From a virus (taxonomy: Duplodnaviria; Caudoviricetes), in the IMG/VR virus record IMGVR_UViG_3300026088_000014, positions 1-64,000 of that record: a DNA stretch of 64,000 nucleotides; one strand, given 5' to 3'. Shown piece after piece: positions 9,593 to 38,792 of this stretch. The notes below the pieces were generated by a model. The model did not search any database. It worked only from the letters and a program-made list of their open reading frames with translations, and was not told the DNA's origin. The stretch's first letter is position 1. The number at the start of each line of letters is the position of its first letter. The position numbers and the translations under genes were made by a program.

Positions 9593-10383
9593 GATGTCGT
9601 CATCGTTGCTTCGTCGGCCACATTGAACTGAACCTGCGCTACCGCGATAGAGAACCCGCCACCACCCCAGAATCCAACACGATGAAACTGGAATTGTTGC
9701 CCGACATTCACCGTGCCGGTAGCGACTTCGCCAATAGCTCCAACAAAATTTCCCGATGACAGCGTGGTCCACGATCCCCAATTAACGTCGCCAAATGGCG
9801 ATCCCTGCACCACATACGATGTAGAGCCGAAGGTCGAGTCGTTCGGAGCATAGAGCGCGTAACTGGCCAGCGTGTGGGTGATAACCGGCGTGTCCAGCCC
9901 GGTAGGAAAAGTGCCGCCGGGATAGCCAGCCCAGTTGATACCGACGTAGTTGCCGTAGCTGGAATCGACTGTCGTAATCATCGCCGACATAAAGGATGGC
10001 TTGTTGGTGTTGCCATCGAAGGCGGCCGGAATGCCTGCGGCATTGCGCATGGTGCCGATTTGCGCGCTGTAGAGATTCAGCAGCGGATTCGGATTAGCGC
10101 CTAAGGCTGAAAGAGGATTGTCATTGGCAACATAGTTTTCCGGGCGGGCATTATGAATCGGCACCGGGTCAGGCGGCAATAGGATCGTGCGCTGGCCATT
10201 CTGCTGATAGGCATCAAGACAGCTGTCGCAGACCAGCATCCGCAGGTTCTGCAGCTTGGTGCCACGCCAGTCTACTGCCCACTTCAGCTTGTGGTGATTA
10301 TAGTGCATGCCGCAGCGATCGCAGACTGCCTTTGCCCGCGGATGGGTAGGACTGATCTCAACTCCTTTGCCGTGCTCTCTCAT
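9589..10383 (-). CDS. Virion-module protein with N-terminal CxxC...CxxC zinc finger
   Basis: ATG at 10383 (ATGA overlap); AVCDRCG...LVCDSCLD. Confidence 0.65.
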   Translation of the reverse strand: MREHGKGVEISPTHPRAKAVCDRCGMHYNHHKLKWAVDWRGTKLQNLRMLVCDSCLDAYQQNGQRTILLPPDPVPIHNARPENYVANDNPLSALGANPNPLLNLYSAQIGTMRNAAGIPAAFDGNTNKPSFMSAMITTVDSSYGNYVGINWAGYPGGTFPTGLDTPVITHTLASYALYAPNDSTFGSTSYVVQGSPFGDVNWGSWTTLSSGNFVGAIGEVATGTVNVGQQFQFHRVGFWGGGGFSIAVAQVQFNVADEATMTTS

Positions 10384-11078
10384 GTGTAGTAGCCAGCCAA
10401 TCCCGGCATGATGCTCATGCCCACGTTCTCGGTGTCCTGCGTCAGAGCGATCTGCATCGCCCTGCTGTAGCGGGCGAACATCTTGTCCTCCAGCTGCGGA
10501 GCGTAGGTCTCGGCCAGCTTCCAAGCCAGCCCGGCGACATAGGCTTCATAGAATCGATAGGGGATCTCTACGTTGTACCCGTTACTGACATCGGCATCCT
10601 GCGTCTGCCTCACCGAGTAGAACTTGATCGTGTATGGACCACTGCCATCAGGGACCGGATAGAAGGTGACATTCTGAGAAATCAACCGGTCATACCAATA
10701 AACCGTTGGTACGCCCTGCTGCAGCTTGTTGGAGTAGGAGGCGTACTCGGTGCGGCTGACTGGCCACAAATAGCGGTCGATTTGCGGGCTCCCCATGCTG
10801 AGGTAAAGATCGAGGATCATGACGGTCGGGGCCGGAACGGCGTAGGTCTCGACGCCCTGGCTTAGCGGCATGACCTGCAGGTCGACTTCCCACAGATTCG
10901 GCGTGTTGTTCGACCATTCCGACAGAACGAAGTTGAGCGCCATTCTGGCGTTGTACATATGCGTCGGCGTAATCTCGGTGGGCCGGACCTGAATCCGGCT
11001 GAACGCCGCCAAGACAAAATCAGCTCCCGAGGGACTGAAGTTGAAGGTCTTAGTTGTCGTTTGGTTGGTGCTGAACAT
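10380..11078 (-). CDS. Second head-tail adaptor/connector-like protein
   Basis: 232 aa; ARMALNFVLSEWSN...YPVPD...EIPYRFYEAYVAGLAWKLA. Confidence 0.7.
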   Translation of the reverse strand: MFSTNQTTTKTFNFSPSGADFVLAAFSRIQVRPTEITPTHMYNARMALNFVLSEWSNNTPNLWEVDLQVMPLSQGVETYAVPAPTVMILDLYLSMGSPQIDRYLWPVSRTEYASYSNKLQQGVPTVYWYDRLISQNVTFYPVPDGSGPYTIKFYSVRQTQDADVSNGYNVEIPYRFYEAYVAGLAWKLAETYAPQLEDKMFARYSRAMQIALTQDTENVGMSIMPGLAGYYT

Positions 11079-15627: not shown

Positions 15628-16395
15628 CTATGATGACACCACATAAGGTGAGGTTGGCGGGGTGAAGTTAGCGGTCCAAGCCGCCGTGTTATTAAGGATA
15701 CGCAACTCATCGATCCAGCCATCAAAATGCGTTCCACCGTGATCCTCGTTGCCAACGGTCGGAGTTCCTGGCGATATATCCATCACCTGGGTACTGGTGT
15801 AATCCGCAACGGCTTTAGTGCCATCAACGAAGAGCCGCAGAGTCGTGCCAGCCCGCGTTACAGCGAAGTGATGCCAAACCAAGGTGTCGTTGACGGTGGG
15901 GCCAGTAATCGCCGGATCAACCGCGCCGACATCGACATAGATGATATTATCGCTGAACCAGAAGATGTTGAGTGATCCAATGTCTCTGGCCGTAATCTCT
16001 CCGGTCGAATACATGATCGATGCATGCTGTGAATTTCGCATGGCCCAGAAATCAACGGTAAAGTCGTTCTGACGCGAGGCCATATCTGCGCTGCCGTCGA
16101 GCACCATCCAGCTGAATGGCGGCCCCACATCCGGCCCAACCCGCAGCGATGAGACACCGAACTTGGCCTGCGCTTGGTCGAGAAAACAGTCAGCCCCCGA
16201 CCCGCCGTTGCTGTCGATGGCGGCCCCGTTGCGATGCTGCCCGGTAGCGTCGACAAAGACCTGCGAGCCCTGCGACCCGTCAAAGTGCATCAGCAGGGTC
16301 GGGCTCTTAGTCACATTGGGAAATGACGGAACGACCAGCTGCGTATCCGAGGCTGGGATAATCCGGGGGACAAACTTTTTCGACTCATAAAGCAT
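15628..16395 (-). CDS. LamG domain protein
   Basis: LLMHFDG, DFTVDFW, WHHFAVTRAG, FDGWIDELRI. Confidence 0.85.
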   Translation of the reverse strand: MLYESKKFVPRIIPASDTQLVVPSFPNVTKSPTLLMHFDGSQGSQVFVDATGQHRNGAAIDSNGGSGADCFLDQAQAKFGVSSLRVGPDVGPPFSWMVLDGSADMASRQNDFTVDFWAMRNSQHASIMYSTGEITARDIGSLNIFWFSDNIIYVDVGAVDPAITGPTVNDTLVWHHFAVTRAGTTLRLFVDGTKAVADYTSTQVMDISPGTPTVGNEDHGGTHFDGWIDELRILNNTAAWTANFTPPTSPYVVSS

Positions 16396-19160
16396 TATGT
16401 TTCCTCTATCGACACCGAAGCATTGTCGATGGCCGGAACCTCTTCGGTCGAGACATCCGCCTGCCGAACTGCTGGTATTTCCTTGATTGAGACAACCGTA
16501 GTCGGCACACGCGACACAGCAGGTACTTGATTATAAACAGTGATACCGAAGAATGCACTGTCACTGTTAACCTCGGTGGCCGAGATGGTGACAAATACAT
16601 CCGAAAGAACCTGTTCCTGCGAGGTCTGGAAGAACCGCTGATACCTAGCGCCAAGACCGATCTTCAGACGCACAGGCTCGTTAAGTGGCGCAAACCACGC
16701 AATGGTGCGCACCAGATTGGGGAAGACCGGCGTCTCAGGTGTGAACGCCCGCTGATACGGCGCATTAAGCCACAGCTTCTTGCGCAACGGCGTCGAGAAC
16801 GGCTGGTGCCAGGACTCAAAGCGCGAGACATCCGGCGTGAAAACCGAAGTGGTAAAGCTCTGATATTGGAAGCTGCGCGGATAGATGACGGTCGGCGATA
16901 CGCTCGACACAAAGACCGGGGTCGGAATGATCGGCGCAGCGTAAGTCTGCTGCTGGCTGGTCAGCAGTGGCCGGCGAGCACGAACCGGAATCGACCACGG
17001 CTGGTGCCAGCCGTCCTCAAAGACTGCAGCAGCAGTTGGGGTAAACGTGCTCCAACTAAATGACGGCTGGCTGGCAACGCTCGGCTTGCGCCGTGTCGGC
17101 TCCGACCACGGTTGATGCCAACGACTCTCGAAGTCCTGAATGATCTGGGTTTCAGGATTGAGCGTCAGCCCGATGAACGCCTGCTGCAGATTGGCTTTGA
17201 TGCCAATTTTCTGCCGAACAGGATCGGTCCATGGGTAAATCCACTTATCAACCGTGACTGTCTCAAAGACCGAGGTGGCTGGAGCGGTAAACGACGGCTG
17301 CTCGGAAACCGGGAAACGACGGAAGCGTACTGGCTCAGACCATGGCTGGTGCCAACGGCTCTCGATCGTTCCGGTTAATTGATCGTCACTGAGATGTGGC
17401 CAACTCAGCGCTTCCTGTAGCGATGCCCGCAGTCCGATCTTCTGTCGAACCGGCTCGGTCCATGGATAGACCCACTTATCAAGTGTGACGACTTCCGGAG
17501 TGGAGTTGTCATCAATAAAGGCCGTGACCTGTAGCGCCGTTGGGATACGCCGAGTTCTGACCGGCTCAGACCATGGGAAGTGCCAGCGGCTTTCAAAGTC
17601 TTGGCTGATCTGCGTGTCTGGATTGAGCGTCAGGCCGATAAAGGCTTGCTGCAGCCCGGTCCTGAGACCGATCTTCAACCTGACTGGATCGGTCCACGGG
17701 TAGATCCATTTATCGACAGTGACCGTCTCGAATACGGACGTTGCCGGGGCAGCCGCGGCCTGCTGCTGCGCGGTCAGTAACGGCGGCTTGATGCGAACCG
17801 GATCTGACCAAGCGAAGTGCCAGCGACTCTCGATGTCTTGGCTGATTTGCGTCTCAGGATCGAGGACCGGCGCAATGAACGCTTGCTGCAGGTAGGTCTT
17901 GAGACCAATCTTGGTCCTGACCGGATCAGTCCAAGGATAGATCCATTTATCCGAAGTAACGAACTCCGGCGTAAAGACCGGCGCGTGGTAGGCAGACTGT
18001 TCCGCTGTCGGGAAGCGACGGAAACGAACCGGCTCCGACCACGCATACGTCCACTTGTCGACGGTGACGACTTCTGGAGTAAAGAGAGTCTGCGCGACCG
18101 CCTGTTGCTCGGCGGTCGGGAATCTCTTGAACCTGACTGGTTCTGACCACGGATAGTGCCATCTGCTCTCGAACTGATCGACGATCTGCGTCTCGTCATC
18201 GAGAACTGGACCGATCGCCGCTTGCTGAAGCGCCGCACGCAGTCCGGGCTTTGCTGGCGTTGGTGTTTCAAGCCAATGGAACCAGCTATCAACATCCACG
18301 ACCTCTGTCGTAAATGGCGTCTGGATTCCGCCATCGGATGTTTCCAGCGCGCGGGCTGCCGCCGGATCGCGCTTGAGCCTGACAGGATCGACAAACGCCT
18401 TGTACCAACTGTCGATGTCGACATCGGGCTGCGGCGTATAGGCAAGGAACGGCTGTTCGCCGGTCGGCAGCTGCCGCTTGGTTCTTACCGGTTCAGACCA
18501 CGGGAAATGCCAGCGCGACTCAAACTGATCGATGATTTGCGTTTCATCATCGAGCACAGGGCCGATCGCTGCTTGCTGCAGCGACGCGCGTAATCCTGGC
18601 TTCTGCCTGACCGGCTCAGTCCACGGGTAGACCCACTTGTCGACCGTGACTGTTTCGGCAGTCGTGACAAATGGTGTGTACGCCAGAGACGGGTACTGGA
18701 ATGCCTGCTGGAATATGACCGCACTGGTCCCGTGCGGGACAGCAATTACCTGCGGCGGAGAAAAATCTATCGTGGCATCGAGAGCCAGCGTGATGAATCG
18801 CCGCGGATCGATCTTAACGCGAACCGGCTGTTCAAGCGGTCGATACCAACTATCGACATCTATTGCCGCTGGCGGGATAAACGGCGCTGAGATTAGGCCA
18901 TCGGATGTTTCCAGCGCGCGAGCACTACGTGGATCACGACTGACGCGAACTGGATCGCGCCATGCCGCAAACCACTTATCGACAGTGACGGTCTCAGGTG
19001 GAACAAAGGCTGGCTCAGTATGCGACTGATACTGGAAGCGGCCTTTGTAGGTGACCTGCGAGGAACAGGTGACGTTGATGACAGCAGTAACGACCGGAAC
19101 GGCGACAACCGCGACGAAGGCTAATTCTTGATATTGTCGCTGGTTTCTGAAGAAGGGCAC
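16395..19160 (-). CDS. Large Trp/Pro repeat protein (about 19 W-x-x-P-W-[ST]-[ED]-P-V-R-like repeats)
   Basis: 921 aa with internal repeats of about 35-40 aa; function unknown. Confidence 0.75.
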   Translation of the reverse strand: MPFFRNQRQYQELAFVAVVAVPVVTAVINVTCSSQVTYKGRFQYQSHTEPAFVPPETVTVDKWFAAWRDPVRVSRDPRSARALETSDGLISAPFIPPAAIDVDSWYRPLEQPVRVKIDPRRFITLALDATIDFSPPQVIAVPHGTSAVIFQQAFQYPSLAYTPFVTTAETVTVDKWVYPWTEPVRQKPGLRASLQQAAIGPVLDDETQIIDQFESRWHFPWSEPVRTKRQLPTGEQPFLAYTPQPDVDIDSWYKAFVDPVRLKRDPAAARALETSDGGIQTPFTTEVVDVDSWFHWLETPTPAKPGLRAALQQAAIGPVLDDETQIVDQFESRWHYPWSEPVRFKRFPTAEQQAVAQTLFTPEVVTVDKWTYAWSEPVRFRRFPTAEQSAYHAPVFTPEFVTSDKWIYPWTDPVRTKIGLKTYLQQAFIAPVLDPETQISQDIESRWHFAWSDPVRIKPPLLTAQQQAAAAPATSVFETVTVDKWIYPWTDPVRLKIGLRTGLQQAFIGLTLNPDTQISQDFESRWHFPWSEPVRTRRIPTALQVTAFIDDNSTPEVVTLDKWVYPWTEPVRQKIGLRASLQEALSWPHLSDDQLTGTIESRWHQPWSEPVRFRRFPVSEQPSFTAPATSVFETVTVDKWIYPWTDPVRQKIGIKANLQQAFIGLTLNPETQIIQDFESRWHQPWSEPTRRKPSVASQPSFSWSTFTPTAAAVFEDGWHQPWSIPVRARRPLLTSQQQTYAAPIIPTPVFVSSVSPTVIYPRSFQYQSFTTSVFTPDVSRFESWHQPFSTPLRKKLWLNAPYQRAFTPETPVFPNLVRTIAWFAPLNEPVRLKIGLGARYQRFFQTSQEQVLSDVFVTISATEVNSDSAFFGITVYNQVPAVSRVPTTVVSIKEIPAVRQADVSTEEVPAIDNASVSIEET

Positions 19161-19161
19161 G

Positions 19162-19869
19162 TCAGTACCCTAAGATTTCGGTCTTCGTAAAAAAGTCTTG
19201 AGGCTGGGTGTCCGGGAGATCTATGCTTCCGCTTACAGCGACAGCAATCGATGTAGCAAACCAAGCCCCACTGACAGAAAATCCATAGACACCAGGATCG
19301 TAGGGATTGCTGGACAGCGGTGTGCTCGACCACGACATGGCGATCGTCGTGCTGCGCGTGTCACTACCGGTCGTTGATACCGGCGTAGAAAAGGCTCCGC
19401 CGATCCCCGTCACCGTGCTGGCAGATAACGATGCCGCACAGGCAACAATAGCAAAGGCTGTCGAGGGCGCGGTTAGCTGCGGCGGGTTCGGGCTGGTGCT
19501 GGTTCCGGTTGCCGTCGCCTCAGGGGCATCAACTGCATATCTCTCTGCCCCACGCAGCACCACGTAAGCCGCAGCACATCCATCCTGAGCGTTACCGCTA
19601 TTGCTACAAACGATGGTGAGATCACCGCCTGTCGAAATCTTGGTAAACAAGCCATAATTCAGGTTGCCGCTGACGAACGTCGAGGTGATCGGGGTTATCG
19701 CCGTGCCGCCGGATGAATAGGCAACCAGCGTCTGCGCACGCGGACACGCCATCGCTACGAATACTTGATCGCCGTTGATGAGGCAGGATGTGGCTGTCGC
19801 TATATTAAGCGTGATCGACAGGCCGTTAATGGCGCTGACGGCTGAAGTATTGATAAGGGAAATAGCCAC
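19162..19869 (-). CDS. Ser/Thr/Ala-rich putative virion protein
   Basis: 235 aa, operon context. Confidence 0.6.
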   Translation of the reverse strand: MAISLINTSAVSAINGLSITLNIATATSCLINGDQVFVAMACPRAQTLVAYSSGGTAITPITSTFVSGNLNYGLFTKISTGGDLTIVCSNSGNAQDGCAAAYVVLRGAERYAVDAPEATATGTSTSPNPPQLTAPSTAFAIVACAASLSASTVTGIGGAFSTPVSTTGSDTRSTTIAMSWSSTPLSSNPYDPGVYGFSVSGAWFATSIAVAVSGSIDLPDTQPQDFFTKTEILGY

Positions 19870-19881
19870 ATCCGGCCTTCC

Positions 19882-20184
19882 TCAGAAGCCATAAGACTTC
19901 AACGCCATCTCTCGCTGTTCGGCCATCTCAAGTCTTTTCTGGAACGGAACGCACGGGCCATCGGCACAGGTCGGGCAGGTCATCTTCATGCAGTTGCGGC
20001 ACATTGAACCGAATTCACCCATGGGAGCCATCGGTTTGACATGGATGATTCGGTTACAATGACAGCAAGTGAAGGTGTCGCGCTCGATGACGCCGGCACC
20101 AACTTCCTCGCACCGGAACCTGTCGAAGTTTACCCTCACAGGATCAGGCGTAGTAATAACCGCGTAGCCGTGCGGATTCCGCAT
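19882..20184 (-). CDS. Cys-rich (zinc-finger-like) protein
   Basis: CCHC...CRNC...CPTC...C in 100 aa. Confidence 0.6.
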   Translation of the reverse strand: MRNPHGYAVITTPDPVRVNFDRFRCEEVGAGVIERDTFTCCHCNRIIHVKPMAPMGEFGSMCRNCMKMTCPTCADGPCVPFQKRLEMAEQREMALKSYGF

Positions 20185-20193
20185 TGTGAACTC

Positions 20194-20736
20194 CTACTCG
20201 GAGAACAACACGTTTCCGGTGACGGTGGTCGTCAGCGTGCCGCGGAAGCGCAGCGCCAAGCCGGAGAATGTCGTGGCCGAAGATGTGGCCGGAGACACGA
20301 TTTCCGATCCCGGAGCGGCGACCCAACGATACGAGGCGCGCTGGTTGACACCAACGTACCAAGGCTCGGCACCGACCGAGTAGCTGGCCGATGAGCCCTG
20401 CGAGGCGTTGATGGTGCAGAAGCACTGGAAGCCGGTATCCGCCGGGTCCAGGGTGAATGCACTCGACGCGCTCGACAGCGTGCCGGTCCAGGTCAGCGTC
20501 GAACCGATCGTAGTGCGGATGATCGAGTATTCGACGTAAGAGTCCGCCGGGGTGCCGTTGGTGCCGACAAGCACGTCGTACCACTTGACACGCTTGAGGC
20601 CGTTGTTGGCCGGCGGGCTGACCAGTGCGCTGCCGCTTGACGGCTGCGTCATGATCGCCGGCTGATAAGATGTCGATGCGGTCGTTTGCGCAGAACCAAA
20701 CGACAGGTTCGAGTTAGAAATTCCATAATTGGGCAT
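20194..20736 (-). CDS. Ser/Thr-rich putative virion protein
   Basis: 180 aa; 52 of 180 residues are Ser or Thr by manual count. Confidence 0.6.
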   Translation of the reverse strand: MPNYGISNSNLSFGSAQTTASTSYQPAIMTQPSSGSALVSPPANNGLKRVKWYDVLVGTNGTPADSYVEYSIIRTTIGSTLTWTGTLSSASSAFTLDPADTGFQCFCTINASQGSSASYSVGAEPWYVGVNQRASYRWVAAPGSEIVSPATSSATTFSGLALRFRGTLTTTVTGNVLFSE

Positions 20737-20745
20737 AGATGGCTC

Positions 20746-21729
20746 CTATCCCTGTTTCTCTGGGTTGCGTGCCTTCGCCAGCAACTGGTCCAGATACCAA
20801 GTGCCGCCGTTATCTTGCGTGCCGAGATGAATTTCCGTGTAGTAGACCGTATCTTCCAGCGCACCTTGCAGGTAGCGAAGGTCGGCGGTCTTCGACGCAA
20901 CCACGTTCTGTGCTTGCGCCAGTTCCTGATTACAGACGTTGATGCGGGATTGCAGCTCGGCACGACGCGCGAGCGTCTTTCTGCCGAATTGCGTAACATC
21001 AGAATATCCATACAGGCCAGGTGGCTGCATGATATCCGACTCGGGTGGTGCCCAGCATTTGATGCCGCGCTTTGCAGCTTCGACGAACAGCGCCTGCGTT
21101 CCTTGCCGCTGCACCATGTATTCGTCGTGCGAGGCCATATCGATACCATAGAGGTTAATCTCTTTGGCACCCTGCATCATGGCAAAGCCAAGCATCCAAG
21201 CGAACGATGAGGTAAAGAAGTAGGGACCGAATTCCTTTATGAGCTCGTCGCGCGGGAAGATCAGCGCATTCTTGACCTGCGACTGATCCTGCATATAGAG
21301 CGGGATCTTCAGCTCGCTAAGCCACTTCAGATATGGCTCGCCGTAGTGCTTACATTCCGGCCACAGCAGGTTGGCATGGATCTCAAACCACACGTCAGCG
21401 CGCGGCAGGTTATTCATGTTGCCGGGCGAGCAGGCCCAGATCTTCCAAGACGGGTCGTTGAACGGAGCCAGCAGACGCGATGACGGCGCAGTACCGATCA
21501 AGGCAACCTTGAGCGGAGCAGGCTCAGCCGCAGGGACAACCGGCATTTGAAACGTCGGCCCTATTCCGTACATAGGCTGCGGCAGCGCCCCGCCAAGCTC
21601 GACAAACGGATTGGCTGTCGTCGGCTCATGCGGCGCAACAATGTGTACCGGTGCATTGCCGGTATCTCCCTGCGGAGAAAGCTCCGGTTTCTTGTTCTGG
21701 TCGCCGAAGGTTGGCGTAATCAATGACAT
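20746..21729 (-). CDS. Putative Maf/GT29 (sialyl/pseudaminyl-transferase-like) glycosyltransferase
   Basis: KVALIGTAPSS resembles the L-motif (IVGNGPS); TSSFAWMLGFAMMQGAKEINLYGIDM resembles the S-motif (...G.keI.L.G.D). Confidence 0.55.
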   Translation of the reverse strand: MSLITPTFGDQNKKPELSPQGDTGNAPVHIVAPHEPTTANPFVELGGALPQPMYGIGPTFQMPVVPAAEPAPLKVALIGTAPSSRLLAPFNDPSWKIWACSPGNMNNLPRADVWFEIHANLLWPECKHYGEPYLKWLSELKIPLYMQDQSQVKNALIFPRDELIKEFGPYFFTSSFAWMLGFAMMQGAKEINLYGIDMASHDEYMVQRQGTQALFVEAAKRGIKCWAPPESDIMQPPGLYGYSDVTQFGRKTLARRAELQSRINVCNQELAQAQNVVASKTADLRYLQGALEDTVYYTEIHLGTQDNGGTWYLDQLLAKARNPEKQG

Positions 21730-21730
21730 C

Positions 21731-22117
21731 TCAACTTCCTATAATCTGCCCGGAGATCAGCGTGACAACCTGACCGACCGTGACCAGCGTACTGTTAAGT
21801 CCGTTGGCAATCGTGACGTTTGCCCCAGAAAGCGGAATTCCAACGGTCAGGCCAGAAATCATCACAGCTCCTGTCGAATCTTGTATCCTAGCTCCGTCTG
21901 CATTTCCAGTTGCGTCCGCCGATATATCTAGCGCCGGCACGGTGAACGTGAGTACGCCGGCTGCAGCGACGCCGCATGGCTTAGCAAGTGTAATGGTAGC
22001 AAGAGTGACCCCACCATTAAGGAGAAGCATAACTCCGTTACCAGGGCCTGCATCGATCGCAGTGATGACCCCATTAAGTCGGGCGGTGATGGCTGTTGTG
22101 CTGTAAACGATGGCCAC
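21731..22117 (-). CDS. Hypothetical virion protein (128 aa, GTG start at 22117)
   Basis: AIVYSTTAITARLNGVITAIDAGPG; RBS-like AGGA upstream of the GTG. Confidence 0.6.
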   Translation of the reverse strand: MAIVYSTTAITARLNGVITAIDAGPGNGVMLLLNGGVTLATITLAKPCGVAAAGVLTFTVPALDISADATGNADGARIQDSTGAVMISGLTVGIPLSGANVTIANGLNSTLVTVGQVVTLISGQIIGS

Positions 22118-22122
22118 ATTGA

Positions 22123-22845
22123 TTATCCTGTCTGCAGCACAGACACACCCAGCTGCGAGGCGTTGGAGGACGATGAAATCAACGTCACGCGCCACGCCGA
22201 GATGGGCGAGGTAAAGTTGGCTGTAGTAACCGCATCGATCGCGGTGGAGACAAAGGTCGATCCTGGGGTCTGCGAGATAAACGGGGTCGGATACCACGGC
22301 ACGATCTGTGGATTGCTGCTCGATAAGAGCTTGTTCGGACCCGGCACCGTCTGGGTGATATCCTCAAGGGTGCATTCAAAGTTGGCCGATGCAGTCCCGG
22401 TGGCGGTGAAGGTAAGCTGAACCGCCATGTCGAACGGATTGGCCCACGAATTGGTGGTGATCCACGGGGTTCCTGCCCGTGAAGACGTGCCCATATTCAT
22501 GCGCACGTTCAGCGACGAGCTGAAGGTCACCGAGGTAACTGACTGAAAATCCTGTACCGTGGTGCGAATCGAGCCAGCCGCACTTGAGCCAAGAATTCTC
22601 TCGGTGACGGCATCGCCGCTATCGCTGACCCCGGTCAGTGTGATGATAAGCGAGTCGCTGGCTGCCGCTGAAGACCAGAAGATAATCCGGCGACCGGTAT
22701 CCAGCAGCGAGGCAACCGCACCCGATGATGTGCCGATCTGTGCCGACGAGCCCGAGGTATAGAGGACGGTCTGCGACGAGAAAAAGCCCAGCATCCCGCT
22801 GGAGGATGTGGTGATCGACTTGTTGAGAAGGGTTGGTTGCGCCAT
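22123..22845 (-). CDS. Ser/Thr-rich putative virion protein
   Basis: 240 aa, about 32% Ser+Thr by manual count. Confidence 0.6.
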   Translation of the reverse strand: MAQPTLLNKSITTSSSGMLGFFSSQTVLYTSGSSAQIGTSSGAVASLLDTGRRIIFWSSAAASDSLIITLTGVSDSGDAVTERILGSSAAGSIRTTVQDFQSVTSVTFSSSLNVRMNMGTSSRAGTPWITTNSWANPFDMAVQLTFTATGTASANFECTLEDITQTVPGPNKLLSSSNPQIVPWYPTPFISQTPGSTFVSTAIDAVTTANFTSPISAWRVTLISSSSNASQLGVSVLQTG

Positions 22846-22854
22846 ATCCGCCCT

Positions 22855-23060
22855 TTAGTTGGGCCGATACTTGGCGTAGGTGATTGCCAATCGAGCCCTT
22901 TTTCCTGCTTTCCCTGGAGAATCCCTATGCTTGTGGGCGTACTCCATTGTGGACATTCCAGCTCGATGAGCCGCGGTTCGTAGCGCACCGGGTTTATGCA
23001 CAGCGTTCTGCATCCATTTCCCGGACCCGCCACCGGATGCGTAAGCGTCAGATCCTTCTA
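22855..23060 (-). CDS. -1 frame extension (KW..NAVHKPGALR family domain) of the 23058-23315 gene; internal ATG at 23013 would give 52 aa
   Basis: Frame is open from the slippery site to TAA at 22855 and encodes IEGSDAYASGGGSGKWMQNAVHKPGALR...GKAGKRARLA. Confidence 0.65.
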
Positions 23061-23067
23061 TTTTCCC
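23010..23067 (-). other. Predicted -1 ribosomal frameshift signal: G GGA AAA heptamer plus downstream H-type pseudoknot
   Basis: Heptamer directly precedes the TAG; 5-nt spacer; stems GGATCTG/CGGGTCC and GCATCC/GGATGC. Confidence 0.65.
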
Positions 23068-23315
23068 ACTGATCCGCCGCGTTTGTGGCCGATACTGGCG
23101 CTGGATAGTGGATGCTTGTCGGCACCGACTCCGCCACCGCGCGCCCGCTTGTCGAGGCGACCACCAGACTTGAAGCCGGCAACCGACCCGCCATCCTTCT
23201 TGGCCTTGCCACCACGCTTGATCCCGGCTTCTTTACCGATCTCGTCGTCGTGCGCAGCGCGCCGCTTGACTGATCCGCCGCCCGCCTTGGTCTGCACTGT
23301 ATGACGGTGTGCCAT
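23058..23315 (-). CDS. Small basic protein with repeated xxxGG motifs
   Basis: 85 aa; KAGGG, KRGG, KDGG, FKSGG, RARGG, HKRGG. Confidence 0.7.
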   Translation of the reverse strand: MAHRHTVQTKAGGGSVKRRAAHDDEIGKEAGIKRGGKAKKDGGSVAGFKSGGRLDKRARGGGVGADKHPLSSASIGHKRGGSVGK

Positions 23316-23326
23316 TTAATTCTCCT

Positions 23327-23665
23327 TTAGGCCGTGACGGACTGAAGCGCTTTGAGGGTGAATGTGATCGGCGTGGCGTTGGTCGTTGAGTTAATCCTGA
23401 CCCCGCCGAGCGGTGAGAGCACCGTCAACAGGTAGCCTGTGTCAAAAGCCGTATTCGACGAAGTGATACCGACCGCCGAGCTGATGACCGCCCATGTCAG
23501 GGTGGGGCCGCCAACGATGGTTGGGTCGTCGAGTGAGGCTTGAATGGTGAACGCGGCAACCGCCGAAGACGATGCCGTCAGCAGCAGCGTTGTATTCTTG
23601 GCTACCGGATTAAGGGCGATTCCGGCGCTGGTGCCTGCCGATGAAAGGGTTACGGATTGTGCCAT
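23327..23665 (-). CDS. Ser/Thr-rich capsid decoration-like protein
   Basis: 112 aa, two genes downstream of the capsid gene. Confidence 0.6.
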   Translation of the reverse strand: MAQSVTLSSAGTSAGIALNPVAKNTTLLLTASSSAVAAFTIQASLDDPTIVGGPTLTWAVISSAVGITSSNTAFDTGYLLTVLSPLGGVRINSTTNATPITFTLKALQSVTA

Positions 23666-23674
23666 TTGGCTCTC

Positions 23675-23830
23675 CTAGCCGTTTGTAACTTGGTAGACAC
23701 ACTGGACCTGCTGTTGTGACGCCACGCTATCATCGTAGATCTTTGGCAGTATCGTCGAGATTGGCGTGGCTGAGAACCCGCCGAGCGCAAACAGATTGAA
23801 AAGCGGTATAGGCCAAAGATCGATAATCAT
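23675..23830 (-). CDS. Small hypothetical protein (51 aa, MIIDLWPIPLF...)
   Basis: Read manually; fills the gap between the capsid gene and the next gene; GAGGG RBS. Confidence 0.45.
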   Translation of the reverse strand: MIIDLWPIPLFNLFALGGFSATPISTILPKIYDDSVASQQQVQCVYQVTNG

Positions 23831-23839
23831 GTCATGCCC

Positions 23840-24754
23840 TCACGAAAGCGGGAACGTGCCCCACACAGCGCGCCAGTCATAGTAGGACGGGACGTACCGT
23901 TGGTAGCCCTTGACCAGCAGGTTATCGGTGGTGAACTCAACGCTCATGTCCATCTCAAACGGCTTGCGATTGAACCAGATGAGACCGTCATGATTGGTGA
24001 GAATGAACCACGCAAAGGATGATGTCAGGTAGTCCCACACCAGGAATGACTCCTTGAGCGAGTCGTTCATGCCGAGGACGGCGTTGACATCGTTGGTTGC
24101 CGTGCCGGGACGCAGCTCGGAGCGCGTAAGACGCAGCGCTGTCGGCTCCTGTGCCGGCGGTACGATAAGCTTACGGCCACGCGCATGGATCTTCAGACCG
24201 GCATTGTCACGCCAAGAGGTGCGAACCGTAATGAGCGCATTGAGCAGGGTGGTCTCATTAAGGTCGACATCAGGGCTGGGCTGGTTGGCAATGGTGGAGC
24301 CGTCGATCGGGTGAGCTGTTGAGAACAACGCCACACCATCACCACCAGTTGCTGCGTTGTAGGTGGTGCCGGTATTGAAGACGTTCGCGGCATAAAGCTC
24401 TTCGGTTTCCTTGAACGACTCCATCAGGCCCATGTTCGATGGACCGAACTCGGATTTATAGAGGTTGTCGTCGATCGCCTTGCGGGTGATGGCATAGCCA
24501 AGCCCAATCTCAAGGTGTTCGGCGTTGTAGACAAAGCGCTGTCCCGAAGCGTTATCGAAACTGGTCGGCGCACCTTCCTGCTTCAACTGGGCATAGCCGA
24601 GGAACCGCATTGCGGCCCGGCGCTCCAGCGACATTGACGATTGCGTTTGTCTGAAGACCTTCGGCCACTGCCGCTCGATCATGTCGTACTTGCCGCTGAT
24701 GCCCCACAGACCGGGAAGCAGAAGATCGCGGATTTGAGCTAATGCGACAGGCAT
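23840..24754 (-). CDS. Major capsid protein (HK97 fold, Mu gpT-like family)
   Basis: 304 aa; KQEG, GYAITRKAIDDNLY, RKLIVPP, WDYLTS..AWF, DWRAVWG; downstream of the scaffold gene. Confidence 0.85.
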   Translation of the reverse strand: MPVALAQIRDLLLPGLWGISGKYDMIERQWPKVFRQTQSSMSLERRAAMRFLGYAQLKQEGAPTSFDNASGQRFVYNAEHLEIGLGYAITRKAIDDNLYKSEFGPSNMGLMESFKETEELYAANVFNTGTTYNAATGGDGVALFSTAHPIDGSTIANQPSPDVDLNETTLLNALITVRTSWRDNAGLKIHARGRKLIVPPAQEPTALRLTRSELRPGTATNDVNAVLGMNDSLKESFLVWDYLTSSFAWFILTNHDGLIWFNRKPFEMDMSVEFTTDNLLVKGYQRYVPSYYDWRAVWGTFPLS

Positions 24755-24843
24755 ATGTTAGTCTCCATTTGCCCGCTTCCCCGAAGCACGGTAGGACCCG
24801 CCCTACTCTCGTTAGATGCCAATCAGGGCCGTCAAGAATCTCC

Positions 24844-25491
24844 TTAGGTTGTCGGATAGACCAAGCCAGAAGCCTGCTGGAAGGCAAGTCCGACGAGCTG
24901 CACGACCGCGACCTGGAATCCTTCAGCGCCGGTTGAGGTGCCGTTGACGCCAGGAGGCGCGTAATTGCTGTAAAGGTCGACGACGCGAATGACCGCGTTC
25001 GAGGACAAACCGGTGGGGAAGCTGGAGGCCAGCGTCATGACGCTTTGCCCGGTCGCTTGGTTACCCAACGAAGAGTTCTGCACCGTTGCCGTATAGCCCA
25101 TGCCGATGCTGGTCGAAGTCAGAACAGCGCCAGAGGTACCTTGAACGATGTAGCGCTGCTTGTCGTCGGTGCAGACATAAGCGTTGGCCGGGGAACTAGA
25201 GCCCACGTTGCCGGGGAAGTAGCTGCTCCACACGACACGACCAACCGTTGCGCTGTAGTATTCACAGCCCAAGAACACACCGGCCATGCCGTACTCGTTG
25301 ATGATGCCGACGGCAGACGATGGGTTGGTGATGAATGCGTTGTTGGCAGAACTCCGATTTACGATGTCTCCGGTAAAATAGAGATTCGTATCGCTGGAGT
25401 TGATGAACAGCCGATCGAAACCAGCTGTGGGTGCGCCGCCTTCTGCGCGGCCAAACTGACGAAATCCAAACGGTGCGTTCGTGTTAGCCAT
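24844..25491 (-). CDS. Capsid cement/decoration protein
   Basis: 215 aa; MANTNAPFGFR...FTGD...GVFLGCEY; immediately upstream of the capsid gene. Confidence 0.7.
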   Translation of the reverse strand: MANTNAPFGFRQFGRAEGGAPTAGFDRLFINSSDTNLYFTGDIVNRSSANNAFITNPSSAVGIINEYGMAGVFLGCEYYSATVGRVVWSSYFPGNVGSSSPANAYVCTDDKQRYIVQGTSGAVLTSTSIGMGYTATVQNSSLGNQATGQSVMTLASSFPTGLSSNAVIRVVDLYSNYAPPGVNGTSTGAEGFQVAVVQLVGLAFQQASGLVYPTT

Positions 25492-27207: not shown

Positions 27208-27627
27208 CTAAAAGATTGAATTCGGGTCATCCACCTTCATCATGATGCTGGCATCCCTCAGCAACCGGCAAGGAAATCCATTAACCATGAGGCTTCTGGC
27301 GTCGACCACGTTGTAGACGGCCCACTCCCCGACCTGCACCTTGTCTGCATCGGCGAAATGGTATTCCGCGTCATCCTGAAAGGCAGCTGTGCCCCACTTG
27401 AGGACGAGGCCGACCTTGCCCTGCCAAACATCCTCTTCCTTGTTCGCATCGGGGCGAATGATGCCGCCCTTGGTCTTTTCCGGTCGCATGTAGGTGGCGA
27501 CCAGAACTCGGTTTGAAAGGACGTAGTGGCCGGACAGATCACCGACGAAATCGATGATCGCTTTCTTCGGGTCTTTCGCATTGGCAACAATGTCAATCGC
27601 CTTATGAGGTACTACAACACCCATCAC
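27208..27627 (-). CDS. groES: Phage co-chaperonin GroES-like protein
   Basis: RVLV...EKTKGGII.PD...G.V...G...VQVGEW. Confidence 0.8.
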   Translation of the reverse strand: MMGVVVPHKAIDIVANAKDPKKAIIDFVGDLSGHYVLSNRVLVATYMRPEKTKGGIIRPDANKEEDVWQGKVGLVLKWGTAAFQDDAEYHFADADKVQVGEWAVYNVVDARSLMVNGFPCRLLRDASIMMKVDDPNSIF

Positions 27628-28559: not shown

Positions 28560-30995
28560 CTACTTGTCCTTTGGTTTGGCTTTCAAGATAGCCTGTTTCT
28601 TCGCTTGAGCAAGTTCATTGGTGTGTTCAAGCTTTTGCCTGTGCAATTCGGCGTTCCTGTCCATCGCATCCTTGTGGCTTTCGTCGGCCCGCTGCATCTC
28701 GGCCTGGTGATGCTGTGTCTCCATGCCGACATCAATGGCCTTGAGCGCCGCGCTCGACTGCATCTTCTGCTGCGCCTGCGCCTGCTGTGACTGAATCTTC
28801 TGCTGTGTCGTCGCCTGATCGAGCTGCATCTTATGCTGTGTCTGTGCTTCGATGCGCTGCTGATCGAACTGATGGATGATATGCTCTTCGATGACCCTGA
28901 GCTTTTCCAGCTCGATCTTCATCTGCTCGATCTTCTCGCGAGACGCCCGGTCGGCAGCCTTGTCCTGAAGGATTGCCTCCTGCGACTTCGCCTTGATTTG
29001 CGCTTCAAGGAGAGCGATCTGGCTCTTGACCTGCTCGGCCTGTGCTTTTTGGCCGATGGCCACCATACGCGGATCGGGCGGTTGTGGTGCAGGAGTAGCC
29101 CGGAATAGGCCCTCCGGGTCAATATCAACAATGCGCATGATGCGCATATCAACAGCAATCGGATCATAGAGATCTGGACTCGCCTGCTGCAGAGTCTTGA
29201 TCGCCATCGCCTTGGCAATGCGATGCAGACTCGTTGGGTTATTCGGATCGGCGACCGGGACCAACTCACAGTTATTCAGTGCTTCGAGGAATTGTTCTTT
29301 CTTCCACGGGATCGTTGGCCGCTTGTTCTGTCGCCAGAAGGCTTCAGGATCTTCACGGAAGCGTTTTTTAATGAGCTGGAACTCTTCGGCTTGGGCAGCA
29401 TGGAGCCGCTTGTGGGCCGAGTCCAGAACCTTCGAATTCTGTTCGATAAGTGCAAGAGTAGTCCCAACCGGCGCATCTTGCTTGCCCTCCCCAACCTGGG
29501 TGTTGGCGGTATTGCCGAGTCGAGCGACAACTTCCTCGATATGCTGTGTGAAGGCGGTGAATGACGGCCCGACTTCCTTGTATGGCAACGGCATGATCGC
29601 CTTGCGGATATCGTCAAGCGCACCGATGTCGAATGGCTGGCTCGTGCCCGGAGCAACGCGGAATGTATTGGTATTCTGCCGCCCGGCACTCTTGGCGTGC
29701 AGCGAGCCGGGGAAGTTGGCAAACATGCCGGCATCGAGCATCAACCGCCACGCCGCGGTCAGCGCGTTCGTCGAGTTACCGAGTAGATGAATATAACCAA
29801 GGCCATAGAAACCAAGTCCACGTATAAAGGGAAATTGCACGAAAAACTGTTTTGCCAAGCACTGATCGTCATCTTCTTCCCAATTACGCCTGATATCGAG
29901 AACCTGCTTGCTGTCTTTCTCGATTGTTACACGATAGGGCAGCGGCAGCCCCTTATCCTTGAATTCATCCGGCGCAAACTGATTGAGATCGAGCTCGCAG
30001 TAAACTTCATAAATCGTATAATCTTGGTCCTCTGGCCTAGTCGGGGCCTTAACGCCAGCCAGCTCCTGCTTCTTCTTTTCGACCTCATCCGCAAACGGAT
30101 TCTGCGGCAGGCTTAGCTCGACATCACGATAGACACCGAGGATCTGCATGCGCCGCAGAATCGACCGACGCATCTTGATGCGATGCGTAACCCGCCCGCA
30201 GTTCTGGATATCGGTCGCCGCGTTGGAGATAATCAAGTCTTCGGCATCGATTGATTCCGATACTGGCCGCCGCCGCAGCGGGCAGTTGTAAACCTTCTTG
30301 AAACCGTCGCCACCGAAACCGATGTAGAACAGCATGCGATCGGTATCGGGAACGTATTCCGTCGCAATCGCCGTCAGGTAGTGATTCATGTCGCGCTCAA
30401 GCGCCTGGGCTAGTTCATCCTTGCCCTGCAGGCTATCGGCAAGATCGCGCGCTGCATTGGTCTGCTGAACCTCTTTCGGTGGGACCGTCGCATCGTTGCG
30501 CACCTTGACCGGCCCAGCGGCTGGCAAAAGCTCGGCCCTGGCCGTTGCCTGAAAGCGAACCGTTGCTTCAAGCAACGCCGGATGACGGACAACCGACATG
30601 CCCTCAAGCGGAGCAGAAGATGTCCCGGCGTCTGTGCGCGGCTTCTCCAGCCTGAGACCGAGCAGCGTGATACCCAAGGCGCGAGTATCGAGCCACTCCT
30701 TGCGCGATTGTTCATCACGATCAATACCTTCCATGATGTCCGAGGCGATGCTTGACAGCTCGCTCGCATCCATGTCGGCAGCAAGGTTGCGGCTGAAGTC
30801 AGTATCGTCCGGACCCGCATCCTCATGCTCCGGATTCAGATCGATAGTGACGGAGCCATCGGCGTTCTCGACCGTGATGACATCATCGTCGGTGATTTTG
30901 ACGTTTGTATCGCCGACCAGAGATAGCGGACGCGGAGGCGTTATTTGCCCGAATGGATCATCGGTGAGTGGCAGGCTATTGCTGCGGATAGCCAT
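28560..30995 (-). CDS. Portal protein (P22-like, long C-terminal coiled coil)
   Basis: 811 aa directly downstream of terL; DMNHYLT, FKKVY, APVGTTLALIEQ. Confidence 0.9.
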   Translation of the reverse strand: MAIRSNSLPLTDDPFGQITPPRPLSLVGDTNVKITDDDVITVENADGSVTIDLNPEHEDAGPDDTDFSRNLAADMDASELSSIASDIMEGIDRDEQSRKEWLDTRALGITLLGLRLEKPRTDAGTSSAPLEGMSVVRHPALLEATVRFQATARAELLPAAGPVKVRNDATVPPKEVQQTNAARDLADSLQGKDELAQALERDMNHYLTAIATEYVPDTDRMLFYIGFGGDGFKKVYNCPLRRRPVSESIDAEDLIISNAATDIQNCGRVTHRIKMRRSILRRMQILGVYRDVELSLPQNPFADEVEKKKQELAGVKAPTRPEDQDYTIYEVYCELDLNQFAPDEFKDKGLPLPYRVTIEKDSKQVLDIRRNWEEDDDQCLAKQFFVQFPFIRGLGFYGLGYIHLLGNSTNALTAAWRLMLDAGMFANFPGSLHAKSAGRQNTNTFRVAPGTSQPFDIGALDDIRKAIMPLPYKEVGPSFTAFTQHIEEVVARLGNTANTQVGEGKQDAPVGTTLALIEQNSKVLDSAHKRLHAAQAEEFQLIKKRFREDPEAFWRQNKRPTIPWKKEQFLEALNNCELVPVADPNNPTSLHRIAKAMAIKTLQQASPDLYDPIAVDMRIMRIVDIDPEGLFRATPAPQPPDPRMVAIGQKAQAEQVKSQIALLEAQIKAKSQEAILQDKAADRASREKIEQMKIELEKLRVIEEHIIHQFDQQRIEAQTQHKMQLDQATTQQKIQSQQAQAQQKMQSSAALKAIDVGMETQHHQAEMQRADESHKDAMDRNAELHRQKLEHTNELAQAKKQAILKAKPKDK

Positions 30996-32649: not shown

Positions 32650-32835
32650 ATGACGCGCGATCAACTCATCCTGCTGTCCACCAGAATATATGACGAGGGC
32701 AAAAAGCGCGAGGGCTTAGGCGGCTACAGCGCCGACGCCGACTCACTGCTGTTCCTCCACTCGGCTCTGTACAACGTCGTTCAGCACCTCATCGAGAAAG
32801 AAAAGAAGCCAAGAAAGCGCAAGAAGAAGCGATGA
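32650..32835 (+). CDS. Small hypothetical protein
   Basis: GGAGG RBS; ATGA-type coupling to the next gene. Confidence 0.55.
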   Translation: MTRDQLILLSTRIYDEGKKREGLGGYSADADSLLFLHSALYNVVQHLIEKEKKPRKRKKKR

Positions 32836-33329
32836 GCATCCTCGTAGCCCACCGAATTCTTCTCACCAAGCACACCGAGCCAAAGCACCTCAAGACCATG
32901 GTGCGCTGGCTCAATGACCCAGATGTCGTCCAATTCTCCGAACAAAGACACCACCGCCACGACGAAGAAAGCCAAGCCCACTACATTACCGACGGATGCT
33001 CAATCTTCCGCGAGATCCATACCGAGAAGCGGTTCATCGGCACCATTACTGCAGATATTGATCGCGCTAACTCAGTTGCCAATGTCGGCATCCTCATCGG
33101 CGAAAAGAAGGAATGGGGCAAAGGCTACGGCACGGAAGCGTGGAAAACCTTCTGCGACCACCTTCTCACCCATGGCATCCGCAAGATCGAGGCAGGCACC
33201 ATGGCGTGCAACTACGGAATGCTGAACATCTTCCGGCGCACTGGAATGCATCACGAAGGGCAGCGCTACAACCACTTCCTGCTCGGCAATGAACTCTTTG
33301 ACCTGCTGCAATGGGCGAGGTTCGCATGA
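32832..33329 (+). CDS. GNAT N-acetyltransferase, PseH/RimJ-like
   Basis: WLNDPDV, GILIGEKKEWGKGYGTEA; located in the sugar cluster. Confidence 0.85.
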   Translation: MSILVAHRILLTKHTEPKHLKTMVRWLNDPDVVQFSEQRHHRHDEESQAHYITDGCSIFREIHTEKRFIGTITADIDRANSVANVGILIGEKKEWGKGYGTEAWKTFCDHLLTHGIRKIEAGTMACNYGMLNIFRRTGMHHEGQRYNHFLLGNELFDLLQWARFA

Positions 33330-34123
33330 AGGTGCAGTTAGTGGGCAGCAACGAAGAAGCCATAAAGGAATTCTGGGATGGTCAGGCCAAGCAGCATGGC
33401 GCATCCGACAAGGCCACCGCACCAGACTCGGCCTACCGGCAGCTGGAGATCGACGCCATCATCCCACACATCGAGGGGCGCTGGATTTGCGATGTCGGCT
33501 GCGGCAACGGCTATTCGACCTTCAAGTTCAAGGATGCTTATCCCCACAAGGCATTCCTCGGCGTCGACTACTCACAGGCGATGGTCACGGCAGCCAATGT
33601 TGCGGCCATCGTCATACACTCGGACGTATCGTTCGTTACCTGCGACGTGCGGAAGCTGTCGCGGCTGAAAGTCGCCAAGTTCCACACCATCATCTCCGAG
33701 CGCTGCCTGATTAACCTGCAGACGTGGGAAGAACAGCAGCAGGCCATTCTGGAAATGAAGCAATGCCTGCTACCGGAGGGCAAGCTGATTCTGGTAGAAA
33801 ACTTTATCGATGGGCTGAATAACTTAAACAAATTACGCGAGCAATTTGCCTTACAGCAAATCCTTGTCCGCTGGCATAACCGCTACCTGCATTCCGCTGA
33901 ATTTCACAAATTCATTGAAAAAGAATTTTATATCAAACACCAAGAAAACATCGGCAACCTCTACTACATCATATCGCGTGTGGTTTATGCCAAACTCTGT
34001 CAACTAGATGGCACAGAACCGCAATATGGTGCCGAGATAAATCGCATCGCCGCCAAGCTGCCGCCACTCGGCGTCTACAACTATTCCCCAAACATGATGT
34101 ATGTGCTGGAGGCCAAGGGGTGA
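33326..34123 (+). CDS. Class I SAM-dependent methyltransferase
   Basis: ICDVGCGNGYS, GVDYS, ISERCLINL. Confidence 0.85.
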   Translation: MKVQLVGSNEEAIKEFWDGQAKQHGASDKATAPDSAYRQLEIDAIIPHIEGRWICDVGCGNGYSTFKFKDAYPHKAFLGVDYSQAMVTAANVAAIVIHSDVSFVTCDVRKLSRLKVAKFHTIISERCLINLQTWEEQQQAILEMKQCLLPEGKLILVENFIDGLNNLNKLREQFALQQILVRWHNRYLHSAEFHKFIEKEFYIKHQENIGNLYYIISRVVYAKLCQLDGTEPQYGAEINRIAAKLPPLGVYNYSPNMMYVLEAKG

Positions 34124-34719
34124 AACAGGTCCGCGCCTTTATGCAAAGCGAAGGGGCGGCATGGCTTGAGCGCAATGAAAGCAAGCTGCCGCCGGTCATT
34201 GATCCTGTCATTGAAGCCATCAAGTCCGCCGACATCTCCCCGCACCATACGGATGTCATAGAGGTTGGCTGCGCTAATGGCTGGCGCTTGGAACGGATGA
34301 AGCGGCTGTACAACACTCGCGGCATCGGCGTTGACCCCGCGGCCCCGCGCAACGTGCCGCATCTGTTTCAAGGCGGTGCCGATAGTTTACCGGCAGCAAC
34401 CGATGAGTACGATTTTGTCATCTACGGGTTCTGCCTCTATCTGGTCGATCGCGAAGACTTGTTCAAGGTAGCCGCCGAAGGCGATCGCGTACTGCGCAAC
34501 TTCGGTCACATCGTCATCTACGACTTCCTGCCAGATTACCCGCACAAGGTGCCGTACAAGCATCTCGACGGACTCTTCAGCTACAAGATGGATTACGCCA
34601 ACCTGTGGCTCGGCAGTCCGGCCTACAGCGTCGTGCATCGTCAGTTATGGCCGGAACAAGGGGAAGCGGTCACCATTCTGCAGAAAGACATCAACAGAGG
34701 ATGGCCGCTCGATGAGTGA
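34120..34719 (+). CDS. Class I SAM-dependent methyltransferase (sugar-cluster type)
   Basis: IEVGCANG, GFCLYLVDREDL, YKMDY. Confidence 0.8.
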   Translation: MKQVRAFMQSEGAAWLERNESKLPPVIDPVIEAIKSADISPHHTDVIEVGCANGWRLERMKRLYNTRGIGVDPAAPRNVPHLFQGGADSLPAATDEYDFVIYGFCLYLVDREDLFKVAAEGDRVLRNFGHIVIYDFLPDYPHKVPYKHLDGLFSYKMDYANLWLGSPAYSVVHRQLWPEQGEAVTILQKDINRGWPLDE

Positions 34720-34843
34720 CATGAAGGAATTGCTTAGCCTGCTTGCTCTGTCTGGGTTCATCGGAAATATCCATGCACAGTTTGGCTGGGCGTTTTTAAT
34801 GGCTGGTAGCCTAACGATGCTTTTCATTGGATATTTCAAATGA
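34712..34843 (+). CDS. Small membrane peptide (43 aa)
   Basis: Read manually; hydrophobic; overlaps both neighbours. Confidence 0.45.
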   Translation: MSDMKELLSLLALSGFIGNIHAQFGWAFLMAGSLTMLFIGYFK

Positions 34844-38593: not shown

Positions 38594-38787
38594 GAGGACC
38601 TGGGAGACCGCTGAAAGACTTGCCGAAGAAGACGATCATGAATCACATCATTCGGCTGCGCGGTCGCAACAACCGTCACTTTGGAGCCTTGTGGGCCGAG
38701 GGATTGAAGACCGCCAAGGGCCGCAAGGCGTGGAAGGCCATACAAGAAAACGACACACAGATAACAAAATGGATGAGCCGCATTTAG
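38590..38787 (+). CDS. Small basic hypothetical protein
   Basis: 65 aa between pseB and pseC; ATGA overlap. Confidence 0.5.
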   Translation: MRGPGRPLKDLPKKTIMNHIIRLRGRNNRHFGALWAEGLKTAKGRKAWKAIQENDTQITKWMSRI

Positions 38788-38792
38788 AGCGC

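Follow-up and report, generated by a model that had tools for sequence, protein, structure and literature searches.

A putative nonulosonic acid transferase of sialyltransferase/Maf-type fold in the virion module of an uncultured phage

Maf enzymes O-glycosylate serine and threonine (Ser/Thr) residues of flagellin with nonulosonic acids (PMC3426422; bioRxiv 10.1101/2020.06.03.131540), a type of glycosylation also covered in bioRxiv 10.1101/2023.12.03.569772. Among phages, the capsid and tail-tube subunits of mycobacteriophages are glycosylated and the glycans act as a shield, according to a citing passage in PMC12619734. Here we analyse a 64-kb stretch of DNA (the window) from an uncultured phage, positions 1 to 64,000 of the 77,038-bp virus record IMGVR_UViG_3300026088_000014, and within it a minus-strand gene at 20746–21729, with the major capsid gene on one side and the SU10-type adaptor genes on the other. 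On the basis of an AlphaFold2 model, fold searches and genomic association, its 327-residue product is an enzyme of sialyltransferase/Maf-type fold and a putative cytidine monophosphate (CMP)-pseudaminic acid transferase. Full-text literature searches turned up no description of an enzyme like Maf or Cst encoded by a phage, nor of virions modified with nonulosonate.

A preliminary description of this DNA had predicted a sialyltransferase/Maf-type fold for the enzyme, and structure prediction agrees with it. In the AlphaFold2 model, for which 30 homologues were used, residues 70–240 form a Rossmann-like core of high confidence (predicted local distance difference test score ∼85–96), preceded by a low-confidence region (residues 1–70) and followed by a long C-terminal helix (residues 249–302). 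The top Foldseek match is CstII (E 2.9e-5, probability 1.0), while a second search, independent of Foldseek and covering 48,161 PDB chains, ranks the Magnetospirillum Maf protein (5mu5) first, with Z 10.3 over 152 residues at 3.0 Å (model residues 69–235), and Cst-I (2p56) second, with Z 10.1. Re-alignment to CstII (1ro7_B) gives Z 10.4 over 148 residues at 3.2 Å with 21% identity. Structure-based identity to CstII, at 20–22%, is the highest among all fold matches, compared with 11–13% for MptE and thiamin pyrophosphokinase (TPK). The GT29 sialyltransferases 2wnf, 5bo8, 6apj and 4js1 match at Z 6.1–7.0, and unrelated Rossmann folds begin at Z ∼5.4. With its modelled core superposing on CstII, Cst-I and Maf at Z ∼10, we conclude that the enzyme, as modelled, has a fold of the GT42/Maf/GT29 sialyltransferase type.

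Both motifs previously picked out in this gene are present in the translated open reading frame (ORF), VALIGTAPS as residues 75–83 and SSFAWMLGFAMMQGAKEINLYGID as residues 174–197. Their likeness to the L and S motifs of GT29 is a by-eye one that no hidden Markov model (HMM) match accompanies. In distant homologues (31–47% identity), residues G79, P89, E116, H118, A183, G195, E203, Q207, Y240 and G289 are invariant, and P82, S84, S174 and D197 are nearly so. The conserved motifs resemble those of a nucleotide site, and consist of GxxPS after strand 1, TS before a helix and GxD after the next strand.

The strongest functional evidence is genomic: the enzyme is functionally tied to the pseudaminic acid operons of phages. 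NeuB/PseI is present in 22 of the 25 complete enzyme-bearing phage genomes (14/15, 2/3 and 6/7 by set), where complete denotes phage contigs at least 90% complete that were collected through the enzyme, and genes for the CMP-transferase (cytidylyltransferase) follow the same pattern. For the converse, we assembled 25 viral contigs with NeuB, each 40 kb or longer, picked irrespective of the enzyme; 18 of them contain it, as do 11 of the 14 complete ones. Several NeuB-bearing genomes (G309, G310, G312, G313 and G316) hold between two and four matches to the enzyme family, and such paralogues are as expected for transferases with differing specificities. Some family matches (in G298, G308, G309 and G316) contain in-frame TAG or TAA stops; these could be pseudogenes, split genes or cases of stop-codon recoding.

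The association extends over several clades of phage, with genome sizes of 44–94 kb. When the window phage is compared with five divergent lineages, the enzyme and PseI are common to all five and PseB to four, while the cytidylyltransferase fusion protein and a replication-associated DUF1376 protein are each common to two; no further protein of the window phage is common to two or more of the five. One 52.8-kb lineage with a T7-type portal has the gene order Pse operon, three small ORFs, enzyme, TerL, portal, capsid, and its Pse operon includes WbuX, a HisF-like gene and a Pse-associated methylase. The enzyme lies 2–7 kb from the sugar operon in unrelated podovirus lineages and 2–5 kb from NeuB in three fragments (L144, L149 and L150); in the window clade ∼11 kb separate it from the sugar operon, which lies on the opposite strand. 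In the outgroup MW202675.1, a complete 61-kb genome whose capsid protein is 63% identical to that of the window phage, a search of the complete genome finds the enzyme, NeuB and CMP-transferase all absent together. Other capsid relatives are close kin and, where their contigs are long, are the same ones that bear the enzyme. One enzyme-bearing genome (G004) is missing NeuB while retaining the enzyme and the remaining Pse operon, and three HNH endonuclease genes and a serine resolvase gene stand in its place (L084:3028–10812; ∼63000–70800 of the contig). Given that the rest of the operon is kept and that HNH and resolvase genes fill the NeuB position, we interpret this absence as secondary loss rather than independence of the two genes; it looks like replacement of one pathway gene by a mobile element.

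The donor pathway attributed to this phage is real. A pseudaminic-acid-type operon recognised by Pfam and NCBIfam occupies 32832–40879 on the plus strand, and Pfam identifies within it a GNAT gene, two methyltransferases, a GFO-type oxidoreductase, a cytidylyltransferase fused to a class III aminotransferase (35655–37679) and a PseC-like aminotransferase (38691–39881). PseB (37676–38593) and PseI (39752–40879) are NCBIfam equivalogs, scoring 426.8 bits against a cut-off of 407.75 and 394.9 bits against a cut-off of 340.25, respectively. Because both exceed their equivalog thresholds, the sugar made by this operon is of the pseudaminic acid type. With the PseG model (TIGR03590), the entire genome of the window phage gives no match (E up to 1), and the enzyme itself matches no NCBIfam family, PseG included. 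In one relative (L131, 6724–7320), a homologue of a methyltransferase of the sugar operon (window 34120–34719) adjoins the enzyme inside the virion module.

The fold, the two-way association with sugar genes and the PseB and PseI equivalogs together give good support to the reading of the enzyme as a nonulosonic acid transferase, which it probably is. In our best explanation, the enzyme would take a CMP-activated pseudaminic acid derivative produced by the phage's own operon and move that sugar onto an acceptor late in infection. The acceptors would be small jelly-roll, decoration-like virion proteins, such as those encoded at 23327–23665, 22123–22845 and 20194–20736, and their Ser/Thr residues would be modified while particles assemble in the cytoplasm, in the manner of Maf on flagellin, to yield particles coated with a bacterial sialic-acid-like sugar. 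We give this explanation as a whole (a transferase that uses the phage's own CMP-pseudaminate derivative, a late-infection acceptor and a virion coat) a probability of roughly 0.45. For the acceptors taken separately, and given transferase activity, we think the odds slightly favour virion proteins of the same late operon. Virion glycosylation is thus plausible but unproven.

A number of observations weigh against a transferase that modifies the virion. The domains with which bacterial Maf proteins bind their acceptors, TPR and helical, are missing from the enzyme. Searched both as a single sequence and as a 30-sequence profile, it finds no match in Pfam, PHROGs, NCBIfam or PDB sequences, and its best PDB sequence matches are at chance level (E 0.26–0.44). 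The Maf/MptE-like family PF01973 does not match the enzyme by hmmscan to E 0.1, nor does a six-frame search of the phage genome find it to E 10; for GT42 (PF06002), hmmscan with Pfam-A gives no match and the six-frame genome search is empty, although the controls of the latter were also silent. Aligning 143 family members with 14 bacterial Maf domains by hhalign gives probabilities of 13–22% (best 22%, E 9e-4), too low to establish homology; the one element aligned confidently and in register, the helix-strand-GxD motif, counts in favour of the transferase. Membership in Maf, GT42 or any curated family at the level of sequence is therefore a claim that fails. Furthermore, non-transferases share the fold, namely MptE pyrophosphokinase (Z 9.6–10.0), TPK (to Z 9.8) and SteA (Z 8.4). 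Three complete phages (G019, G041 and the Microcystis phage PP496355.1) have a family member while PseB, a DegT-type aminotransferase, NeuB and cytidylyltransferase are absent, so that the co-occurrence with sugar clusters, on which the preliminary description had staked its proposal, holds for the large majority of complete genomes in both samples and breaks down in these three. It is important to note that in 2/3 of the phages with such a solo enzyme the gene again adjoins packaging or adaptor genes, and that solo copies have the appearance expected of a transferase drawing on a host-made donor. Finally, the enzyme-less MW202675.1 has small post-capsid proteins with 24–27% Ser+Thr and another small virion protein with 31%. 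Since this outgroup shows equal richness with neither the enzyme nor the sugar genes, Ser/Thr richness of the neighbours, previously offered as evidence that they are the acceptors, is weak evidence and does not serve that purpose. Virion proteins are the most plausible acceptors from gene position and co-expression, not from composition.

There are three other explanations to consider, the first of which was overlooked in the earlier interpretation. The enzyme may be a non-orthologous replacement for PseG, hydrolysing the uridine diphosphate-linked diacetamido-altrose intermediate for PseI, with the real transferase being host-encoded or unrecognised. The PseG model is empty in 19 enzyme-bearing phage genomes (16 of them complete) as well as in the window phage, despite the presence of PseB, PseC-like, PseI and PseF genes, and this absence from every one of the 20 genomes tested is equally compatible with a pathway role, which is a further point against a transferase. 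The enzyme is also as universal among the compared lineages as PseI, and no other common unknown gene is available to fill the PseG step. Yet a lone pathway hydrolase would be pointless in the three complete phages that hold the enzyme with no sugar genes, and a replacement for PseG fits poorly with two to four paralogues in several genomes, with a location in the virion operon rather than the distant sugar operon on the other strand in the window clade, and with CMP-sugar transferases as the nearest solved structures at 20–22% structure-based identity. Known PseG, moreover, has a different fold, GT-B. We consider this explanation quite unlikely. Much the same structural comparison bears on whether the enzyme is of the pyrophosphokinase or regulator type, a nucleotide-dependent protein akin to MptE, TPK or SteA that shares only its Rossmann-like fold with the transferases and has no sugar substrate. 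The Z scores of MptE 6-hydroxymethylpterin pyrophosphokinase, Bacillus subtilis TPK and SteA are nearly tied with those of the transferases, and the nearest Pfam-labelled Atlas cluster is MptE-like (16% of members, score 0.80), which is merely a lead. Such a role would leave the two-way association with NeuB and cytidylyltransferase unexplained, structure-based identity is higher to CstII than to MptE and TPK, and no pterin or thiamin genes are seen in the window, making us highly sceptical of this explanation.

The third explanation retains a nonulosonic acid transferase and moves its acceptor from the virion to the host, whether lipooligosaccharide, capsule precursor, flagellin, pilin or S-layer. 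Its effect would be to remodel the surface of the infected cell, for instance to block superinfection or to keep progeny from adsorbing to debris. Such an acceptor would be in keeping with the nearest folds, lipooligosaccharide being what CstII and Cst-I sialylate and flagellin the target of Maf. Virion proteins rich in Ser/Thr also occur outside the enzyme-bearing phages, and the solo copies imply host-made donors, and hence hosts that probably display such sugars. Against this stand the position of the gene between capsid and adaptor genes in the window phage, its location in other lineages and in the Microcystis phage, where it immediately precedes terminase, portal and capsid genes, and the small virion-type jelly-roll proteins that are its conserved neighbours. 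Near-absence of the enzyme from bacterial genomes and prophages (8 matches among 185,579 species) is also ill suited to lysogenic conversion. We regard a host acceptor as unlikely.

The enzyme belongs to a large family. A word-indexed search returns 831 related proteins, mostly more than 50% identical, and a profile run against 1.84 billion cluster representatives gives 4,044 matches at 50%-identity clustering; when ten diverse members were sampled, none had a Pfam or PHROG match to the enzyme domain. Atlas neighbours of the enzyme are 100% viral, and the scan of prokaryotes, with one genome per species, places all 8 of its matches on contigs of 2–39 kb from metagenome-assembled genomes. The family is thus essentially virus-only. 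We tentatively suggest, at odds somewhat short of even, that this family of more than 4,000 clusters consists of minimal pseudaminyl/nonulosonyl transferases, with which diverse phages coat their own capsid decoration proteins in a self-made sugar. The sole homologue from a cultured phage, Microcystis phage Mvi-Yong1342-1, is labelled a type 11 methyltransferase, a label that we reject given that neither the fold nor any HMM agrees with it. The N-terminal extension (residues 1–70) is confined to the clade of the window phage and has short conserved motifs, LTPTFND near its start and HEP at about residue 35; most of the distant family members begin at the catalytic core. This tail may serve in targeting or docking. 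In a 504-residue metagenomic homologue (P0256), the enzyme domain (274–499) is fused behind an N-terminal region with a weak match to PhyH-type dioxygenases (E 0.0014, below cut-off).

Turning to the neighbours, the Ser/Thr figures reported in the preliminary description are correct, although the enrichment at 24844–25491 is moderate only. As a background, the minus-strand ORFs of the virion module together have 15.4% Ser+Thr and the plus-strand enzyme genes 9.9%. Directly downstream of the enzyme, 20194–20736 (minus) encodes a 180-residue jelly-roll protein, 28.9% Ser+Thr (52/180), that is a candidate cement or decoration protein and a candidate acceptor. It has homologues in 61 related ORFs, and its AlphaFold2 model is all-beta (predicted template modelling score 0.76). 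Its nearest folds are a Bacillus Ena subunit (Z 8.7) and the cement protein of phage KHP40 (Z 8.1), and its nearest solved folds, at Z 7.7–8.7, also include a tailed-virus turret protein; all of these are within background. Next to it, 19882–20184 (minus) encodes a 100-residue Cys-rich, zinc-ribbon-like protein with 60 related ORFs, up to 77% identical, and no Pfam or PHROG match; that it is an assembly or specificity factor is speculation. In more distant 85-kb phages, the 180-residue gene (L134 and L136) and the Cys-rich gene (L136 and L142) also flank the enzyme. Directly upstream of the enzyme lies a gene for a 129-residue virion structural protein (21731–22120, minus; phrog_3758, E 1.3e-7), with 59 related ORFs.

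The most Ser/Thr-rich of the neighbours is a 240-residue candidate acceptor (22123–22845, minus; 32.5%, 78/240) with only 11 related ORFs and no family match; searches of cultured phages with this protein and with the 180-residue protein gave no informative match. A 112-residue protein (23327–23665, minus; 30.4% Ser+Thr), encoded directly after the capsid gene, is a candidate head decoration protein and likewise a candidate acceptor. Its relatives number 56 ORFs with 27–35% Ser+Thr, and its Atlas neighbours are viral, an XepA-like cluster among them being merely a lead. This gene is tandemly duplicated in several relatives (L034:8396–9071, L042:8249–8956, L021:2628–3610 and others). A poorly conserved 235-residue protein (19162–19869, minus) has 26.8% Ser+Thr and one related ORF only, while a 215-residue protein encoded upstream of the capsid gene (24844–25491, minus), with 20.5% Ser+Thr, is kept in the enzyme-less outgroup. 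Among the neighbours of the enzyme, then, the 112-, 129- and 180-residue proteins and the 100-residue Cys-rich protein are conserved in the clade, and the 240- and 235-residue proteins are variable.

The virion and packaging module that holds these genes runs along the minus strand from 30 to 32588. Family searches identify an SU10-type portal (28560–30995) and two SU10-type adaptor genes (5969–6679 and 10380–11078), all on the minus strand. The major capsid protein (23840–24754, minus) matches Mu gpT in Pfam and phrog_371, as well as proteins annotated as capsid in both cultured and metagenomic phages. The head module also contains a GroES/Cpn10-like gene (27208–27627, minus), which is kept in MW202675.1 and annotated there as co-chaperonin GroES. 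Elsewhere in the module, a 921-residue protein (16395–19160, minus) contains many degenerate repeats, in which motifs of the WHxPWSEPVR and VTVDKW types recur, and has no match in Pfam; at the tail-module end, a 925-residue protein (30–2807, minus) has an N-terminal inorganic pyrophosphatase domain (InPase, PF18823; E 6e-35).

If the particle proteins are indeed modified, many uncultured phages of soil and water would build a sialic-acid-like coat from a donor that they make themselves, using a family of transferases not recognised before. Such a coat would affect adsorption, mimicry of the host surface and recognition by host defences or grazers, and may also serve in masking or particle stability. 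Virion glycosylation in these phages would be self-contained, with a chemistry unlike that of the sole known phage precedent. The enzyme would also offer a compact, soluble nonulosonate transferase, with a core of ∼230 residues, for glycoengineering. Were it instead a replacement for PseG, a known step of the pathway would gain a new enzyme. In either case, a family of thousands of sequence clusters is without a Pfam, PHROG or NCBIfam model.

Among characterised enzymes, the GT42 sialyltransferases CstII and Cst-I of Campylobacter jejuni (1ro7 and 2p56) resemble the phage enzyme over its whole core (Z 10.1–10.4, 146–154 residues, 16–22% identity). In the phage enzyme as in the GT42 enzymes, strand 1 leads into a glycine-rich loop and a helix-strand-GxD element is present, and both kinds of enzyme are cytoplasmic and associated with a CMP-nonulosonate pathway. 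What sets the phage enzyme apart from GT42 is that no sequence profile matches and that its core is framed by a disordered tail at the N terminus and a long helix at the C terminus; its acceptor is probably a protein, whereas that of CstII and Cst-I is lipooligosaccharide. The segment after the GxD strand is presumably much shorter than in CstII, and we take the lid and His188 of CstII to have no obvious counterpart. Maf (PF01973; 5mu5) superposes through its central domain (Z 10.3), and both it and the phage enzyme are coupled in the genome to Pse/Leg biosynthesis genes, with the same proposed chemistry, a cytoplasmic O-linkage of nonulosonate to Ser/Thr of a structural protein. Compared with Maf, for which the open frames around sampled bacterial domains are 275–1268 residues long, the phage enzyme has 327 residues, is virus-only, and has neither the flanking TPR and helical acceptor-binding domains nor a GlfM-like partner (bioRxiv 10.1101/2023.12.03.569772). 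The MptE 6-hydroxymethylpterin pyrophosphokinase (8sd5) belongs to the same fold superfamily (Z 9.6–10.0), but its identity is only 11–12% and the context of the phage enzyme is one of sugar genes, not of a pterin pathway. As far as the citing source describes them, the mycobacteriophages that glycosylate their virions share with the window phage a glycosyltransferase or glycosyltransferase-like gene beside the capsid genes. Their enzymes reportedly have another fold, and their sugars are said not to be nonulosonic acids. Unlike them, the window phage also encodes a whole donor pathway.

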